Assembly: GCA_965261595.1 (NCBI GenBank)
Contig: CBDHDG010000003.1
Coordinates: 32,001 to 96,000 of the forward strand
Length of the DNA: 64,000 nt
DNA from: a bacterium
GTDB taxonomy: Bacteria; UBA8248; JACPRG01; G963555815
Direction of reading: 5' to 3'
Shown piece after piece: positions 42,001 to 48,000 of this stretch (its first letter is position 1; each line of letters opens with the position of its first letter). A program made the position numbers.

Positions 42001-45000
42001 CGGACGCAACCGTCCCCTCTCCCCATTCACCGTCGCCTTCGGGAGATTCATCCGATCCCAATTACTACATCCTTCGGAATTCCACGGGGAAATCCGTTCA
42101 TGTTGAGATCCGCTCCAGACCCATCCTCTACCGGCACCGGGTCGCCACCCTGAGCATCCTTCGTGATCTGACCGAGCGTAAACAGATCGAACAAAAGCTT
42201 CTTCAGGTCGAGCGGCTGAAGGTTCTCGGCGAGCTTGCCGCCGGTATCGCCCACGATGTGAACAACTCTTTGTTGCTCATTCTGGGATCGGTTGAACATA
42301 TCGAGGGTGAGACGGATATCAATGTTATCGCCGAGGCCCTTCGGACGATTAAGACCGCGACCCTGGACGGCGCCGCGACGATCCAACGGATTCAGGACCT
42401 TGGCCGGCTGAAGGATGAGGCCGATTTCGTCCTTCTCGATCTCAACGAGATCGTTTCGGACGCTAAAAACATCACACGCCCAAAATGGGAAGAAGAGCCC
42501 AAAGGCCGTGTTTTGTCGATCGAGGTCTCAAAGAACCTTGCCGAAGAAGCGGTGATTCAGGGAAATGCCTCGGACCTGCGTCAGGCCTTGGTCAACCTGA
42601 TCATCAACGCCGTCGACGCCATGCCCCAAGGCGGTGAAATTGAGCTTCGGACGGAAGTGAAGGGGGAGACTGTGTCCCTCTTCGTCCAGGATAGCGGGAT
42701 GGGCGTCCCCCCCGAGATCAAAGAGAAGATATTCGATCCCTTTTTCTCCACGAAGGGCGAGCGGGGCTCCGGACTCGGCCTCAGCACGGTTTTTGGGATC
42801 ATGACGAAGCACAGGGGCTCAGTGACGCTGGAATCGGACGAAGGGCGGGGGACGGTCGTTCATTTGGAATTTCCCCTTGCCCGCGAAGCCAAACCGCCGA
42901 AGTTGAAAGATCAGTCATTGAAACAAATTGCCGGCTCGCCGGAATGACGGCGGCGTTCACCCCGCAAACCCGAAATCGCGCATTTCATCAATCCGCCAGG
43001 CCTTTCGGCAGGTTCACCTCTCCCAGCGGCGGAAGCTCGTATTTGTCCCAATCCTCACGGATTTTTTCGAGGAAGCGGCGGGGCGGGAGGGAGACGTCCG
43101 GGTAGTTCCATTTTTTCGTCGCGTCGATGAGCGCCTTGGCCCCCGTGGGGGGGCTGTCGCCTCTGCCCGGCTCGTCGGATGAAGGGTCCAGCTCCAGCGC
43201 GCCCATGTTCTCCAGGATCCGGATGTCCTTGTCAGGGCGCACCCGGTAGTTCATCACCCATTCGCGCATGAACGGGTCGCGGATGTCGATGTCGTCATCC
43301 ACCACGACAATCCATTTGAAATAGCTCATCCCGCAGAACGCGAGGGCGCCCATCATCAACTGCTCCACCTGACCCCGGTAGACCTTCCGAATGCTCATCC
43401 ACAGGGCGGCCGCGCCGCCCCCCGACTCCGGCATGTGCAAATCGGCCAATCCCGCGATATTCAACGTGGCGCTCAAGTGCCGGTGAACGCCGGTCTCCAG
43501 AAAGTGGCGCTTCAGCACGGTGCTTTCATTCGGGGGAAACTGGCTGATGAGGCCGACGAGGATGGGGTCGCGGCGGTGGGTGATGCATCGGACGTGAAAC
43601 ACGGGGCACTCCCGGTCTCCCGCCATGTATCCGGTGAACTCCCCGAAGGGTCCCTCGGGCTCGACCCTGTCCGTGGTGATCTCTCCCTCGGCGACGAACT
43701 CGGCGCTTGCGGGAACTTCCAGGTCCACGGTCTTGCACTTCACCAGCCGGATGGGCTCGCCCCGGATTCCGCCGGCCACGTTCAGCTCGTCCATTCCGAA
43801 CCGGCCCGGCCCGACCAGGGTGATGACGGGATCCACGCCGCTGAACAGCGCCGCCGGCATGGGCTCGCCCCGCGCCTTCCATTTGGCCCATTGCACGGCG
43901 CCGTACCGATCCGGGGCGGAGAACTGAATTCCCGTGGTTCTCGGCTCCTTGACCTGACAGCGGCGGATGCCGATATCCCGGACCCCGGTCTCCGGGTCTT
44001 TGGTGACCCACAGGGGGGTCAGATAAGGGCCGCCGTCCTTTTCGGGGGTCCAGATGGGGGCGGGAAACCGCGTCAGGTCCGCATCGTCTCCATGAAGAAT
44101 CACCTCTTGACAAGGACCGGAATCCGCCATCACGGGCGGGATGGGGTTTTGAATCCCCCGGTTGACCCGCTCGAATATCGCGCCCGGCTCCGGCGCCGTC
44201 TCAACGGCCACGCCGATCTGCCTGGAAGAAATGGCGGTGACGCCCGTGACCATCCGTCCCCCCGGACGGTCTTTGATATTCCGAAAGCCCAGACCGAAAC
44301 GGGCCTCTTCCCGGTACCCTCTGAAAATCATCCGGGAGAGCGACGAAATCTCCCATGCCGGGTCCACCTCGTTTTCCACCCAGTGGAAGAGTCCCTCCCG
44401 TTCGAGGGCTTCGAGGTAAGTTCTCAGGTCTTCATAAGCCAATGCGGGTTCTCCCAGGGAGGTGAAATCAATGTCCGGCGGTCTCTTCTCCGGGCTGAAA
44501 CGCCCGCCCTTCCACTTGGAATGGAAACCCGGTCATCCGCCCTTTTTCCGGATGGCTTCGAGGATGTCCTCGGGGCGGATCGGCAGGTTCCGGACCCTCA
44601 CGCCGATGGCGTCCGAGACGGCGTTGGCGATGGCGGGGGCGGTGGGCAGGGCCGCGGACTCCGCAACGCTCTTCACCCCCATGCCCGCCGGGTCGATGTT
44701 GTCCGCAAATTCCACGCGCGTACGCGCGGGCGCATCGAGGGGTGTCGGGATTTTGTAGTCCGCCATCTGTCCGTTCACGGGAGCGCCCGAGTCCCGGTCG
44801 ATGACGAGGTGTTCCGTCAGCGCGAAACCGATCCCCTGGACGAACGCGCCCGTCACCTGTCCCTCGGCCCCGAGCGGGTTCACGATCCTCCCCGCGTCGT
44901 GAACATCGGCCATGTCGAGGATCTCCACCGCACCGGTCTCCATGTCCACGGCGACCTTGACGCACTGGGCGCCGAACGGGGGAGGGTTGCCGGGAGGCGT

Positions 45001-48000
45001 CGAGCTGGCGGTCCCCATAATGGTTTTCATCTCTTCATAGTGGGCGTGCGCCGCCGCTTCCCGCACCCGAAGCCGCTTGTCCGTGGATTTCGAAACAATG
45101 GATCCCTCGACAATGTCCAGGTCTTGCGGATCCTCTTCGAGCATCCTCCCCGCGGTTTCCAAGAGTAGAAGTTTGGCCTCCAGGGCGGCTTTTTGAACGG
45201 CGTGGCCGGAAACAAATGTAATGCGGCTTGCATGGGTGGCCACGTCGAAAGGGGCCGTATCCGTGTCCGTCGCGGCGACAATCACATCTTCGATGGGGAG
45301 GCCCATGGCGTCCGCGACAATTTGGGCCAGGACCATGCTCTGTCCCCCCCCCTGTTCGATGGAGGCGGTGAGCAGGATCACCGTTCCGTCTTCATTGACT
45401 TTGACGATGGCGCCCGAGTACTCGAGGATCTTCTCCGGCCGGTCGTCCGAGCCGTGCACGCCGGTGTTCCGCATGTTCGCAAACGCCAAACCCAGCCCGA
45501 TCCTGACCGAGGAATCCGGGCTTTGGCGGGCGTCGGATCGGTCCCAGCCGATCCTCTTCCGGGCCCGCCGGGCGCAATCAGGCAGGGCGCAGGATTCCAC
45601 CTTGAAGCCCGAGAGGGGGGAGACGTCCCCGACGCGGTAGGCATTGCGCAGGCGAAACTCGAAGTCATCCAGCCCGAGCTCGGCCGCGATTCGGCTCATC
45701 TGGCACTCGATGGCGAAGTTGGTTTGAACACCGCCATAGCCCCGCATCGCGCCGGAGGGAAAGATGTTGGTGTAGACCGCGTGTCCTTCAAAGAGGTAAT
45801 GGGGGGTGTTGTAAGCGCCGATGAAGGTCATTCCGCCCACCAGCACCACGGAGGGGCCGTGATTGGCCGCGGAGCCGCACTCCATCCAGGCCTTCATGTG
45901 CCGGGCCGTGAGCGTCCCATCGGCCCGGACGCCGGTTTTGACCCGGATGCGGGAGGGATGCCGCGCGCTGGCGATGAATTCCTCCTCCCGGGTGTATTCC
46001 ACCCGGACCGCCCGGTTGGCGCGCAAGGCCAGAAGGGCGCAAATCACCTCATTGACCGCAAGGTCCAGCCCTTTTCCGAACGCGCCCCCCAGGTTCGGCC
46101 GGATGACCCGAATCTTGCCCGCGTCCATCCCCAGCGCCTCGGACAGACAAGCCCGAAGACCGAAGATGGATTGCGTGGTCGAGAGGATGGCGAGACGCCC
46201 GCCGGATTCGGGCCAGGCGATTGCCAGATGGGTCTCCAGGGCGGTCTGGTTGATCCGCTGCGTGGTGTATTCGTCCTCGAAGACGTGGTCCGCGCCCGCA
46301 AATCCTTCTTCGAGGGTTCCCCGGCGAAGCGTGATCGGCTCGTTGGCGTCGCGCCAGCCGAAGGCGATGTTCCCTTCGCCGCCGGGGCGGACGATCGGGG
46401 CGCCGGCCTCGAGGGCCTTGTCCATCTCGAACACGGCGGGGAGCTCTTCATACTCCACTTCGATGAGCGCCATCGCTTCTTCGGCCCGGTCCCGGTGGGT
46501 CGCGGCCACCGCCGCGATGGGCTGCCCCAGGTAGCGAATTTCCTCCTCAAAGACGACCTCGTCCTTGACGAGCAGGTCCGTGATGGGATTCGACTGGTTG
46601 TAGATCGGGTTGTAGCGCCGCCCCGGGCTGTCTCCGATTCCGATGACGGCATGGACCCCGGGCGCCTTTCGCGCTGTTTCCAGATCGAGCCGCTTGACGC
46701 GCCCGCGGGGGACCGAGCTCCGGAAAAGGCGGGCCGCCAGGCAATCGGCCGGGAAGTGATCGCTGACGTACCGGAAAGCGCCCGTGGCCTTCTCCATACC
46801 GTCCGGACGGGGAATCGATTGTCCAATGACCGGGTTCATTCATCGCCTTTCAGACCGCGGGTGTTTCCAACCGGCGCCGGGGGTCGCGCCGTCGAAAATT
46901 GCGATCCGGGCCGAGACCGTCCCAAAATCAGCCATCCTAGAGCATGTCCCGAGAAGAGGGCAACTCATACCCGTTTCAGTCTGTTCAGCTCCGGCGCCGC
47001 TTGATGATATTCCGGCTTCCCATCACGGCGGGTCATCTGATGGAGGCGGCGGCCGGATTGGAAACCCCGCCCGATGAACTTTTCTATTATTCTTGACACA
47101 TGCCGGAACCTCAAATTATCATTCTTTTCTGTCGATTTCTCCAAGGTTTCGTCGAATCCTGCGGGTCGGGTCTTTGTCGCGGCGGCCTCGCGGACGGGCT
47201 CGATTTTTCCTCCACGAAGAGAAAGCGCTTTGTCCGACACGCTTTTGATCCAAAACTGCGGAATCCTGGATCCCTCCCTCAGCGGCCGAATCCTGGAAGG
47301 CCGGGACATTCTCGTTTCGGGCGCCCGGATCTCTTCCGTCCGGGAAACGGGAGATCTGAGGGGCGACGTTGTCATCTCCGGCCGGGATCGGCTGGTCATT
47401 CCGGGTTTGATCAACGCCCATACACATTCCGCCGAGAACTACCTGAAAGGATTGACCGACCGCCAACCCCTGGAGATGTGGCTCCCGTATGTCTATGGGA
47501 CCGCCGGGATCTATTCTCCGAGGGATGTCTACCTGTCCTGCATGATCGGCGCGATCGAGATGCTGAAAACCGGAAGCACGAGCGTCATCGATCATTGCTG
47601 GATGTCGCCGGGCGTGACGCCGGACAGGCTGGACGCCGCCATGGAGGCATACCGGGACGCGGGCATCCGGACGTGTTTCGCCCCGCTTGTCGCCGATACG
47701 GATTTCGTCGATCAGTTCGCCGCCGAAAGGGGGCATGAGGTCGGGGACGCCTTTTTCGCCAGGCGGTTCGACAAGGCCCCGCCTTGGGACGAAACGCTCG
47801 GTCACCTCAAAGACTTCTTCGACAAATGGGACGGCTCGGAAGGGGGCCGCCTGCGGTGCATGACGGGTCCGGCGGGGGTCCAATGGTGCAGCGAACGGCT
47901 CCTGGAAGATTGTTGGGCCCTGTCGCGCTCACGTCAGGCGGGGGTTCATCTCCACATCAATGAGACGTTCATTCAAGACTGGGCGAACCGGAAGCGATTC

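Follow-up and report, generated by a model that had tools for sequence, protein, structure and literature searches.

In the lumazine/pterin cluster of Cupriavidus sp. LA-1, according to the accessible part of the report, a molybdenum (Mo) dehydrogenase occurs together with an amidohydrolase-type enzyme that transforms the ring and with a UbiD/UbiX decarboxylase that acts on a heteroaromatic carboxylate (PMC12391406). SAR202 Chloroflexota possess, as outlined in the excerpt available, 28 proteins of the CODH/XDH/AOX family over five partial genomes, which were read as serving the oxidation of recalcitrant organic matter (PMC5395668). The present analysis concerns an uncultured marine bacterium of the phylum UBA8248, whose genome (G000) comprises 6.17 Mb on seven contigs. 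The window is a stretch of 64,000 nt of contig CBDHDG010000003.1 (GCA_965261595.1; contig positions 32,001–96,000). The XDH-family Mo-binding large subunit (L) was regarded as intact when its ORF had at least 650 aa and contained PF02738, and UbiD when its ORF had at least 400 aa and contained PF01977; an L was called an orphan when no gene for a [2Fe-2S] (FeS) or FAD subunit lay within 2.5 kb of it. The genome of a sister genus, G003, is one closed 5.17-Mb contig.

The focal gene module

The window contains one conserved catabolic module, which consists of a Bmp-type ABC importer, two amidohydrolases, a Mo large subunit and a UbiD decarboxylase (Table 1). A first-pass annotation had placed an L–UbiD pair at 42988..46839, and the Pfam domains agree with both assignments. 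Synteny of this pair and of the divergent amidohydrolase–Bmp genes holds in G003 and in another UBA8248 genome, G001. In G000, the conserved module is bounded on one side by the IS-type integrase; this gene and the PAS histidine kinase are both absent by tblastn from the G001 and G003 loci. In total, the window encodes four amidohydrolases, two CN hydrolases, a creatininase, hydantoinase B and a triple RidA; gene calls over 54846–62608 are GC3-based.

Table 1. Features of the focal module and its flanks (window positions)
Position	Strand	Feature	Domains and remarks
40578..41447	-	IS-type integrase (rve)	rve, rve_3, HTH_21
41709..42947	+	PAS histidine kinase	HATPase_c, PAS; convergent with UbiD
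42988..44442	-	UbiD-family (prFMN-dependent) decarboxylase, 484 aa (focal UbiD)	PF01977+PF20696; 91 bp downstream of focal L, same strand
44533..46839	-	XDH-family Mo subunit L, 768 aa, orphan (focal L)	PF01315+PF02738+PF20256
47074..48705	+	Amidohydro_1 metal-dependent amidohydrolase	Pfam; divergent from focal L; syntenic in G001 (87%), G003 (74%)
48815..49840	+	Bmp/PnrA-like ABC substrate-binding protein	PF02608; syntenic in G001 (84%), G003 (61%)
49916..51436	+	ABC transporter ATPase, two ABC_tran stretches	PF00005
51319..52521	+	ABC permease (BPD_transp_2)	PF02653
52505..53437	+	Second ABC permease (BPD_transp_2)	PF02653
53448..54803	+	Second Amidohydro_1 amidohydrolase	PF01979; ends + strand run
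54846–55667	-	CN_hydrolase	Pfam
55838–57301	-	Amidohydro_3	Pfam
57322–58200	+	Creatininase	Pfam
58273–59850	+	Amine-oxidase-like flavoprotein	Pfam
59919–60614	-	Flavin reductase	Pfam
60667–61383	-	DUF3830	Pfam
61736–62608	-	CN_hydrolase	Pfam

The closest solved relative of the focal L is the alpha subunit of 4-hydroxybenzoyl-CoA reductase (1rm6_A; E 1e-92, 315 bits, near full length), with which it shares the same three-domain large subunit. The focal L, however, lies below every NCBIfam equivalog cut-off (XdhA, 598 vs 780 bits; HcrA, 501 vs 994), and more than 190 kb separate it from the nearest FeS or FAD subunit gene on the contig; the Pfam annotation of the window showed no CoA ligase gene in the module. 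Identity of the focal L to its orthologues is 94% in G001 and 80% in G003. The focal UbiD, whose PF20695 score is under the cut-off, finds its best solved matches among HmfF-type UbiD enzymes (6h6x_B and 6h6v_A; E 2e-54, residues 5–429). The depositors' name for these chains is 3-polyprenyl-4-hydroxybenzoate decarboxylase and related; we take them to be furandicarboxylate decarboxylases. Orthologues of the focal UbiD adjoin the L orthologue in G001 (97% identity) and G003 (84%), while its nearest paralogue in G000 is only 45% identical.

Copy numbers and gene neighbourhoods

A recount of G000 gave 75 PF02738 matches and 67 ORFs of at least 650 aa, with about seven broken or truncated loci, in agreement with the 74 genes (67 full-length) annotated at first. 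The 49 UbiD ORFs of at least 400 aa were likewise recovered, but with 58 PF01977 matches rather than 61. One of two Flavoprotein matches is UbiX, which bears out a single UbiX for all UbiDs, and there is a single XdhC-family gene. Fer2_2 and FAD_binding_5 have 28 and 22 matches, respectively. The 88 NMT1 and 78 Amidohydro_1 genes annotated earlier received a rough check only, which gave 94 and 77 ORFs with purpose-built HMMs (117 and 97 first-look candidates).

A UbiD gene lies within 2.5 kb of 11 of the 67 intact L genes (12 in the earlier count) and within 500 bp of six. Direct adjacency occurs in six of 67 cases against 2.5 expected, and 72 of 2000 shuffles reach six; in each of these pairs both genes share one strand and are 13–114 bp apart. 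Linkage of L and UbiD is thus real but modest, and most members of both families are physically uncoupled. Since the UbiDs of the six pairs are only 30–43% identical to each other, the pairing arose repeatedly. The other neighbours of L are diverse and none is dominant (124 families among 111 neighbours); when two genes on either side were considered, 65 L genes had 223 neighbours, which include 11 Amidohydro_1, 7 Amidohydro_2, 8 Rieske, 5 NMT1 and 3 hydantoinase A/B genes.

Orphan subunits and their partners

An FeS gene is present within 2.5 kb of 24 intact L genes, and 19 of the 67 have both FeS and FAD genes; neither is found near 43 of the 67. The earlier estimate that about two thirds of Mo subunits are orphans therefore stands, as does the figure of 19 with both partners, whereas 26 of 74 with an FeS gene becomes 24 of 67. 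The excess of L over FeS/FAD genes extends outside the expanded genera: 10 L genes of G013 have two FeS and three FAD genes in their flanks, and 13 of G007 have five and four. FeS genes are fewer than L genes in every genome examined, some of these counts being first-look candidates.

G000 also has three FAD+FeS gene pairs without an L gene. Two of them are exact copies (1393 and 1387 bp, 100% identical) of the FAD+FeS genes alone of two operons, one of which belongs to the operon-linked clade closest to the focal L. All eight cluster cysteines are invariant across 30 FeS subunits. In the paralogue tree, orphans are sister to operon-linked copies, and the orphan state needs at least 13 changes. 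Most likely, orphan L subunits assemble in trans with [2Fe-2S]/FAD subunits encoded elsewhere, although we know of no precedent for FeS/FAD subunits common to different L subunits, and a literature search on orphan large subunits gave nothing relevant.

Orphans might instead do without canonical FeS/FAD partners, using another electron carrier, such as a cytochrome or a small ferredoxin of the Rieske type, or having a non-redox role, which we regard as rather unlikely. The surplus of L genes is compatible with this, and so are the eight Rieske neighbours, among them small soluble Rieske-type ferredoxins adjoining orphans (e.g. L090:6826-7221, next to the L gene most similar to the focal L among its paralogues). 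However, no single family accompanies the orphans, and the Rieske gene beside C2:166255 runs towards it rather than sharing an operon. Each solved relative found for the focal L, moreover, has two [2Fe-2S] clusters, on a separate subunit or a fused domain. As FAD+FeS cassettes occur without an L gene and were duplicated independently of one, sharing of subunits fits better than other electron carriers.

Age and distribution of the expansion

The L paralogues are old, as first proposed: the median identity is 55.1% to the nearest paralogue and about 79% to the best match in G003. Reciprocal best matches in G003 were found for 55 of 67 copies and for 53 the most similar gene is one of G003 and not a paralogue, so most L genes were present before the genera split. 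In a survey of 51 UBA8248 genomes, first-look PF02738 candidates numbered 60–79 in G000, G001, G002, G003 and G006, 0–1 in two g3 genomes and 4–19 in the other 44. Within the phylum, both expansions are limited to a single family and there to the genera g1, g2 and g4, which upholds the confinement to three genera.

In a tree of the 67 copies with those of G003, G007 and G013 and 106 outside proteins, the G000 copies fall into 30 family-limited clades, the largest with 12 and 11 copies; a single search with the focal L had supplied all the outside proteins, and better sampling may split the clades further. Many L copies thus have separate deep origins, and the expansion is not a single duplication burst. 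Nor is the dual expansion of L and UbiD unique to this lineage, as 24–49 UbiD matches and 13–45 PF02738 candidates occur in five genomes of Chloroflexota. The XDH count of G000 exceeds that of every one of the 354 Chloroflexota genomes listed (401 sampled). In Chloroflexota genome G402, an L lies within 500 bp of only one of 24 sampled UbiD ORFs. Of the 'lineage-specific explosion' noted earlier, the great expansion and the age of both families remain, but not a reading as one burst or as special to this lineage.

Recent horizontal gathering of the genes on mobile elements, rather than an old lineage expansion, is unlikely. Contig ends of G000 bear a multi-copy F-type conjugative element, IS elements or transposases adjoin several L genes, and the 30 family-limited clades could be read in the same way; against this stand the closeness to G003 genes, the reciprocal best matches and the identity of at most 46% between the focal L and relatives outside the lineage. 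Old transfer into the ancestor of the family may have occurred.

Proposed catabolic toolkit

On balance, we lean towards a diversified toolkit for the catabolism of carboxylates of N-heterocyclic and aromatic type, in which orphan subunits would assemble in trans. The approximately 70 intact Mo hydroxylase and 50 UbiD genes probably serve the breakdown of many nitrogen-containing ring compounds. The substrates would be taken up and hydroxylated beside the ring nitrogen by a Mo enzyme with oxygen from water; the ring would then be opened or rearranged by amidohydrolases and the carboxyl group removed by a prFMN enzyme. The focal module would be one instance of a set of some 67 intact Mo subunits and 49 intact UbiD enzymes, located among amidohydrolases, hydantoinases, Rieske oxygenases, nitrilase-type hydrolases, RidA proteins and binding-protein transporters. 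A single XdhC-family factor would mature all Mo subunits, and the one UbiX would serve all UbiDs. The toolkit was in place before the g1/g2 split and has been maintained by selection ever since. In the L copies, the conserved GAY is followed by a hypervariable loop, presumably a substrate loop.

A role in energy metabolism (CO or aldehyde oxidation) instead of heterocycle breakdown is quite improbable. All 60 scanned L copies score highly against the NCBIfam models for aerobic CO dehydrogenase (best E 2e-274), a CoxG gene adjoins one L gene and four L copies are FeS–Mo fusions, presumably the build of Desulfovibrio-type aldehyde oxidoreductases. However, the active-site loop of form I or form II CO dehydrogenase, scored by motifs that we assume to define these forms, occurs in none of the 67 copies; the gene context is rich in C–N hydrolases and transporters, and seventy copies are far beyond the need for one or two substrates.

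It is very improbable that the orphans are remnants on the way to loss. About seven of 74 loci are broken, one by a TGG-to-TGA change at C5:483280 (TGG in the G001 and G003 orthologues), so the nonsense codon reported earlier is real; IS elements lie by several L genes, and conservation is slightly lower in orphans than in linked copies (median identity to G003 78% vs 82%; the genes are related, not independent). All 43 orphans are nevertheless full-length open frames. In 65 aligned copies, orphan and linked alike, GGGFGGK, Q222, R365-G366-G368 and E726 (focal L numbering), which we take to be Moco-pocket residues, are near-invariant or invariant. Reciprocal best matches in G003 exist for 36 of the 43 orphans (median 78%). 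The orphan state is kept in 33 of these 36 pairs and the linked state in 18 of 19; the orphans thus predate the separation of the genera and have stayed intact and unlinked ever since.

An assembly or binning artefact (duplicated or collapsed contigs, contamination, strain mix) as the main cause of the counts has a negligible probability: CheckM-type contamination is 5.57%, there are 1620 self-matches of at least 1.5 kb at 95% identity or more, three L pairs are at least 95% identical and an 8.9-kb C5–C7 segmental duplication includes one L pair, but near-identical duplicates make up only six of 67 copies, 55 have reciprocal best matches, and the closed G003, with 73 PF02738 matches and 70 intact L ORFs, refutes it.

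Comparison with known systems

The accessory genes of selenium-dependent Mo hydroxylases, as presented in the available part of their description, find a likeness in the gene content of G000, which includes a YqeC-family gene and a tRNA-Sec (PMC2276186). The YqeC-family gene (TIGR03172, 146.8 bits vs cut-off 73) adjoins the sole XdhC-family gene.

The lumazine pathway of Cupriavidus LA-1 has, by its description, the same trio of enzyme classes as the focal module; its amidohydrolase is named 'amidohydrolase signature' in the accessible text and may differ in family from Amidohydro_1 (PMC12391406). As far as that text describes it, LA-1 is a soil bacterium in which a single cluster encodes a complete Mo enzyme together with a dedicated UbiX, whereas G000 has dozens of diverged, mostly orphan L genes and one distant UbiX.

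In the literature searched, only one paper mentions both UbiD and SAR202, each a single time. Judging from the excerpt available, SAR202 and G000 are alike in being marine heterotrophs with old, deep-branching families of catabolic oxidoreductases; the SAR202 account, however, centres on flavin monooxygenases, whereas G000 couples the XDH expansion with that of UbiD (PMC5395668).

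Inventory of molybdenum hydroxylase and UbiD genes

The studied genome (6.17 Mb, 7 contigs) contains 75 matches to PF02738, with one gene split into two. In its six-frame ORF set, 67 ORFs of at least 650 aa encode the large molybdenum-binding subunit of the xanthine dehydrogenase (XDH) family, here called L, and seven loci are broken or truncated; the intact L genes make up 2.6% of the genome. PF01977 yields 58 matches, with 49 UbiD ORFs of at least 400 aa. Fer2_2, the family of the [2Fe-2S] (FeS) subunit, has 28 matches, four of them within FeS–Mo fusion ORFs, and FAD_binding_5 has 22. 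A FeS gene lies within 2.5 kb of 24 of the 67 intact L genes, which are termed linked, and FeS and FAD genes together are found near 19. Neither is present within 2.5 kb of 43 L genes, nor within 10 kb of 40, in agreement with the first-pass annotation, which described most Mo subunits as orphans.

Of the two Flavoprotein-family matches, the one at C1:35898-36509 (minus strand) is a UbiX of 203 aa, scoring 238.5 bits on NCBIfam NF004685, above the cut-off of 188; the other is a 432-aa frame that may, by length alone, be CoaBC-like. A single UbiX for all UbiD genes, as proposed earlier, is therefore upheld. A rough check of NMT1 and Amidohydro_1 gave 117 and 97 first-look candidates and, with purpose-built HMMs, 94 and 77 ORFs, the same scale as the 88 and 78 genes reported before. 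Nearly all of the earlier numbers that were recounted were borne out.

Most contig ends of this genome share a common repeat of 10–18 kb with 99.7–100% identity (e.g. C6:1799742-1817418). An rRNA operon was ruled out as its identity, there being no Rfam match; the repeat is an F-type conjugative transfer cluster with TrbI, TraC, S26 peptidase, TraN, TraH and TraG. It seems that a multi-copy conjugative element broke the assembly. Self-matches of at least 1.5 kb at 95% identity or more number 1620 in this genome.

Features of the window and of the wider genome. Positions without a prefix are those of the window, which spans C3:32001-96000; C plus a number denotes a contig. Window genes other than L and UbiD were called from ORF length and GC3, and calls near the ends of a locus may be wrong.
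Feature	Position	Strand	Remarks
Hydantoinase B	28201-30438		Pfam
M20 peptidase	30357-31883		Pfam
Triple RidA fusion	32106-33455	+	450 aa, three RidA (Ribonuc_L-PSP) stretches
IS-type integrase, beyond UbiD	40578-41447	-	Pfam
PAS histidine kinase, beyond UbiD	41709-42947	+	Pfam
Window UbiD, 484 aa	42988-44442	-	PF01977 + PF20696; 91 bp downstream of L
Window L, 768 aa	44533-46839	-	PF01315 + PF02738 + PF20256
Amidohydro_1 enzyme, divergent from L	47074-48705	+	Pfam
Bmp/PnrA-like binding protein	48815-49840	+	Pfam
ABC ATPase	49916-51436	+	Pfam
ABC permease 1	51319-52521	+	Pfam
ABC permease 2	52505-53437	+	Pfam
Second Amidohydro_1	53448-54803	+	Pfam
Nitrilase-superfamily hydrolase	54846-55667		Pfam
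Further amidohydrolase	55838-57301		Pfam
Creatininase	57322-58200		Pfam
Amine-oxidase-like flavoprotein	58273-59850		Pfam
Flavin reductase	59919-60614		Pfam
Second nitrilase-superfamily hydrolase	61736-62608		Pfam
FAD+FeS pair without L	C4:157277-158658
FAD+FeS pair without L	C6:922162-923534
FAD+FeS pair without L	C7:361576-362970
FeS–Mo fusion ORF	C4:475675		928-965 aa (range of the four)
FeS–Mo fusion ORF	C6:519578
FeS–Mo fusion ORF	C6:850130
FeS–Mo fusion ORF	C7:454171

The window L and UbiD genes

The three Pfam domains of the window L, an a/b hammerhead and two that bind Moco, all exceed their cut-offs, and the protein has the domain composition of an XDH-family large subunit. Residues G250, G251, F253, G254 and K256 (GGGFGGK), Q222, R365, G366, G368 and E726, in the numbering of this protein, show either complete or at least 90% conservation in two paralogue alignments (65 and 60 sequences). 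The GGGFGGK motif, a Gln close to Mo=O and a catalytic Glu towards the C terminus are presumably residues of the Moco pocket and of catalysis. For the alignments and part of the neighbour scan, minus-strand translations were one codon off, with the first Met missing and the stop included (767 aa for the window L); family assignments are unaffected. The two [2Fe-2S] clusters of a holoenzyme are encoded here neither on an adjoining small subunit nor on a fused domain, and the closest Fer2_2 gene is 191 kb distant.

The NCBIfam scan took 60 of 65 L proteins (all except L091, L113, L125, L143 and L146) and gave bit scores for the window L and best E-values for the other 59. The window L reaches none of the equivalog cut-offs (XdhA, HcrA, PucD, CoxL, PaoC and others); its top score is 598 bits on XdhA_XDHase (cut-off 780), followed among the values compared by 501 on HcrA (994) and 245 on CO_dehy_Mo_lg (991). 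The nearest solved structure is that of the 4-hydroxybenzoyl-CoA reductase alpha subunit. A motif search of the 67 intact L ORFs found no CoxL active-site loop, which we take to be AYxCSFR in form I and AYRGAGR in form II of aerobic CO dehydrogenase. The loop following the conserved GAY comprises 47 distinct nine-residue strings in these ORFs.

The window UbiD scores 205 bits on PF01977 and 85 bits on PF20696, which places it in the UbiD family; PF20695, at 20.4 bits, stays under its cut-off of 24.3. Its residues R161, E219, E248 and E252 are 91–100% conserved in 49 paralogues, and we assume that they match the catalytic residues of Fdc1. Chains 6h6x and 6h6v are the nearest solved structures.

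Synteny of the L–UbiD pair and the neighbouring amidohydrolase and Bmp genes extends to G001 and G003, two relatives within phylum UBA8248. According to Pfam, genes of C–N bond chemistry crowd the wider 64-kb window. A second protein with three RidA stretches (421 aa) is encoded at L105:9145-10407, and both appear to be triple RidA fusions. At 36267-39831 on the plus strand, a TPR protein (362 aa) comes after a 637-aa fusion of adenylate/guanylate cyclase and AAA_16 ATPase; the two look like a signalling gene pair with no relation to the finding.

Age and phylogeny of the L set

The expansion of L is not an assembly artefact, and it is old. The genome of G003, from the sister genus, is one closed contig of 5.17 Mb with 73 PF02738 matches and 70 intact L ORFs. 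The median identity of the 67 L proteins of the studied genome is 55.1% to the nearest paralogue (quartiles 45–67%) and 78.9% to the best match in G003. Reciprocal best matches in G003 exist for 55 of them, 53 resemble a G003 gene more closely than any paralogue, and identity to another copy reaches 95% or more in only six. The claim that the paralogues are old, at about 55% identity to the nearest, is thus confirmed; many deeply diverged paralogues are common to related genera, as in a toolkit of the SAR202 type.

One near-identical pair sits in an 8.9-kb segmental duplication (C5:145147-154006 and C7:472285-481144, 99.9% identity). The duplication spans a complete FAD–FeS–Mo operon, and identical UbiD copies (C5:138573 and C7:481855) lie just outside the matched block. 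The TGA codon at C5:483280, annotated earlier as a nonsense UGA, does interrupt an L copy. Selenocysteine at this site is ruled out, because the orthologues in G001 and G003 have TGG, encoding Trp, and not a Cys codon.

A FastTree phylogeny with midpoint rooting combined 67 L proteins of the studied genome, 70 of G003, 13 and 10 of G007 and G013 (UBA8248 genomes outside the expanded genera) and 106 outside proteins. It contains 30 maximal clades made up only of sequences of the studied genome and G003, the largest with 12 and 11 members from the former. Since the outside proteins (P0015-P0120) came from a single search with the window L, kept if at least 650 aa long, and are skewed to its relatives, the large clades may yet break up. 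On this tree, the L set combines numerous old, independent lines with some large family-internal radiations. The lineage-specific explosion described earlier stands in outline, but not as a single burst, given its many old roots.

The window L shares 60% identity with paralogue C2:166255. The latter has its own orthologues in G001, G003, G002 and G006, which are 57–60% identical to the window L; therefore, the duplication behind the window gene predates the split of genera g1 and g2. Best matches outside the lineage do not exceed 46% identity, and the next relatives in species-representative genomes are at 30–36%.

Distribution in UBA8248 and Chloroflexota

The studied genome, G001, G002, G003 and G006, which represent genera g1, g2 and g4, have 79, 70, 60, 76 and 70 first-look candidates for PF02738 and 63, 54, 34, 43 and 40 for PF01977, respectively. 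Two 2.1-Mb genomes of genus g3, in the same family, have 0–1 and 2–3, and the other 44 UBA8248 genomes have 4–19 and 1–8. As both families are high in g1, g2 and g4 alone among the 51 genomes scanned, they expanded together in these three genera, and the restriction to them within UBA8248 noted before is sustained.

The outside comparison comprised 401 evenly sampled Chloroflexota (the phylum of G051), four of which (G093, G282, G200 and G399) are flagged as unpublished; no extreme depends on these. Among the 354 genomes listed, the highest counts of PF02738 candidates are 45 (G402, 7.1 Mb), 39 (G410), 35 (G195), 30 (G394) and 29 (three genomes), all below the 60–79 of the expanded UBA8248 genomes. 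The remaining 47 have no PF02738 match at E ≤1e-40. For UbiD the picture differs. Five Chloroflexota scored in full at E ≤1e-30 have 49 (G402), 41 (G346), 35 (G081), 33 (G117) and 24 (G410) matches, beside 45, 16, 13, 27 and 39 PF02738 candidates; as the first look for UbiD listed 104 of the 401 genomes, these counts set no maximum for the phylum. With 24–49 UbiD matches and 13–45 PF02738 candidates in five Chloroflexota, the UBA8248 lineage is therefore not alone in carrying the double expansion.

In the main texts searched, no description of an XDH or UbiD expansion in UBA8248 was found. The papers searched on UbiD with SAR202 and with Chloroflexota likewise yielded none of the parallel double expansion, and those on orphan coxL none of the present one.

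Orphan L genes and FAD+FeS cassettes

Orphan status changes at least 13 times on the tree of 67 copies, counting only well-supported branches, and one origin for all orphan L genes is thereby ruled out. Orphans are often sisters of operon-linked copies, e.g. C3:222662 with C7:603232 and C5:691418 with C5:250132. Reciprocal best matches in G003 exist for 36 orphans; judged by flanks of about 2–2.5 kb on either side of the G003 gene, 33 of these are orphans in that genome as well, and 18 of 19 linked copies are also linked. Median identity to G003 is 78% for orphans versus 82% for linked copies (Mann–Whitney p = 5e-4, a value that overstates the difference because related genes are not independent).

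The studied genome has three FAD+FeS gene pairs without an L gene within 30 kb. Two are exact copies (100% nucleotide identity) of the FAD+FeS genes in two XDH operons: C4:157267-158659 of C4:746446-747838 (1393 bp) and C7:361569-362955 of C6:467894-469280 (1387 bp). Both copied cassettes stop at gene borders, excluding L, and lie 30–39 kb from any L gene; the C4:746446 operon belongs to the operon-linked clade nearest the window L. The third pair ends a cluster at C6:919025-923534 in the order TauC/SsuC-like ABC permease, UbiD (542 aa), FAD subunit and FeS subunit, about 70 kb from the nearest L gene. The 30 FeS subunits that were aligned share all eight cluster cysteines without exception.

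L genes also outnumber FeS and FAD genes in G013 (10 L; 2 FeS and 3 FAD in the flanks) and G007 (13 L; 5 and 4). Unscored first-look candidates for Fer2_2 versus PF02738 number 27 versus 45 in G402, 13 versus 39 in G410 and 19 versus 27 in G117. From the stable orphans, the cassettes lacking L and the excess of L over FeS/FAD genes, we infer that orphan L subunits would draw on FeS/FAD modules encoded elsewhere. The most interesting residue of the analysis is this stable orphan population beside independently copied FAD+FeS cassettes; together, the two make the shared-module hypothesis testable.

Gene context and L–UbiD pairing

A UbiD gene lies within 500 bp of six of the 67 intact L genes, in every case on the same strand and separated by 13–114 bp; it follows L in four pairs and precedes it in two. 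When the 49 UbiD genes were placed at random, the mean was 2.5, and six was reached in 72 of 2000 shuffles. Within 2.5 kb, 11 L genes have a UbiD gene versus a mean of 4.5, with 11 reached in 11 of 2000 shuffles. The adjacency pointed out earlier is thus real, but the physical coupling is only modest.

The UbiDs of the six pairs are 30–43% identical to each other, which rules out the co-duplication of a single L–UbiD pair as the origin of all six, and none is the nearest paralogue of another. As their L partners also belong to at least four separate clades, the pairing arose repeatedly. In G402, L is found within 500 bp of one of 24 UbiD ORFs and within about 3 kb of two (20 sampled loci). With six adjacent pairs among 67 L genes and one among 24 UbiD ORFs in these two genomes, the co-expansion mostly reflects a shared niche, and true operon pairs are the minority.

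The neighbour survey covered two genes on either side of 65 of the 67 intact L genes, in 60 of 62 regions (all except C7:598732-610080 and C7:1084189-1095615). It comprised 223 neighbours, excluding L, UbiD, FeS and FAD genes; 112 were itemised and the other 111 were tallied for the top 25 families only, so that the figures for rarer families are minima. The neighbours include 11 Amidohydro_1, 7 Amidohydro_2, 8 Rieske, 7 short-chain dehydrogenase and 5 NMT1 genes, at least 4 enoyl-CoA hydratases, 3 hydantoinase A/B genes, 2 luciferase-like monooxygenases, 2 AMP-binding ligases and at least 8 transposase or integrase genes. No family among them is a constant companion of L. Two genes away from one L–UbiD pair is a GrdB-like gene (C2:301617-302969; E 2e-116 to the glycine/sarcosine/betaine reductase selenoprotein B family).

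Maturation factor and selenium

The genome has one gene of the XdhC_CoxI family, which adjoins a CTP synthase gene and a YqeC-family gene that exceeds the TIGR03172 cut-off (C7:1191975-1194065). It also has a tRNA-Sec gene at C6:845075-845171. YqeC is proposed, in the relevant passage of PMC2276186, as an accessory of selenium-dependent molybdenum hydroxylases, and UBA8248 genomes are listed with 48–54 selenoprotein genes in part of a database paper (PMC13326102). On this gene content, some of the hydroxylases may be selenium-dependent.

Discussion

The earlier interpretation is right in outline, with three corrections: the expansion has many old roots, it recurs in Chloroflexota and the coupling of L to UbiD is modest. 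A combinatorial molybdenum hydroxylase system can tentatively be proposed. About 40 substrate-specific L subunits, each encoded alone, would share a small set of [2Fe-2S]/FAD electron-transfer cassettes as docking partners, and these cassettes are duplicated on their own in units of 1.39 kb. Maturation of all L subunits would fall to a single XdhC-family factor, possibly with a selenium cofactor, as a YqeC gene is adjacent; the L subunits would act together with about 50 prFMN decarboxylases supplied by one UbiX. The same genomic pattern would have arisen independently in sponge-associated UBA8248 and in some Chloroflexota. Taken jointly, with shared cassettes, one maturation factor, prFMN decarboxylases and independent recurrence, we regard this proposal as rather unlikely to hold in full. 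If true, it would represent a general strategy for feeding on the heterocyclic and aromatic acids in organic matter of marine or host origin.

As biocatalysts for heterocycle hydroxylation and reversible (de)carboxylation, molybdenum hydroxylases and UbiD enzymes are in demand. One lineage with about 120 diverged, intact and conserved members offers a rich untapped panel of specificities. The stable orphans raise the testable question of whether different Mo subunits can share one FeS/FAD module and one XdhC, and perhaps one common selenium-insertion system. For marine microbiology, the expansion provides a first metabolic signature for the uncultured phylum UBA8248, for which the name Spongiamicota is proposed and which is reported as most abundant in sponge metagenomes in the pertinent section of PMC11920076. 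The double expansion in some Chloroflexota suggests a niche in common, with heterocyclic or aromatic acids as substrates.

Known systems offer two comparisons. SAR202, as summarised in the relevant part of PMC5395668, has old paralogue expansions for consuming recalcitrant marine organic matter, with 28 XDH-family proteins in five partial genomes. The lumazine/pterin degradation cluster of Cupriavidus sp. LA-1, in the section of PMC12391406 that describes it, contains the same trio of enzyme classes, acting on a heterocycle.
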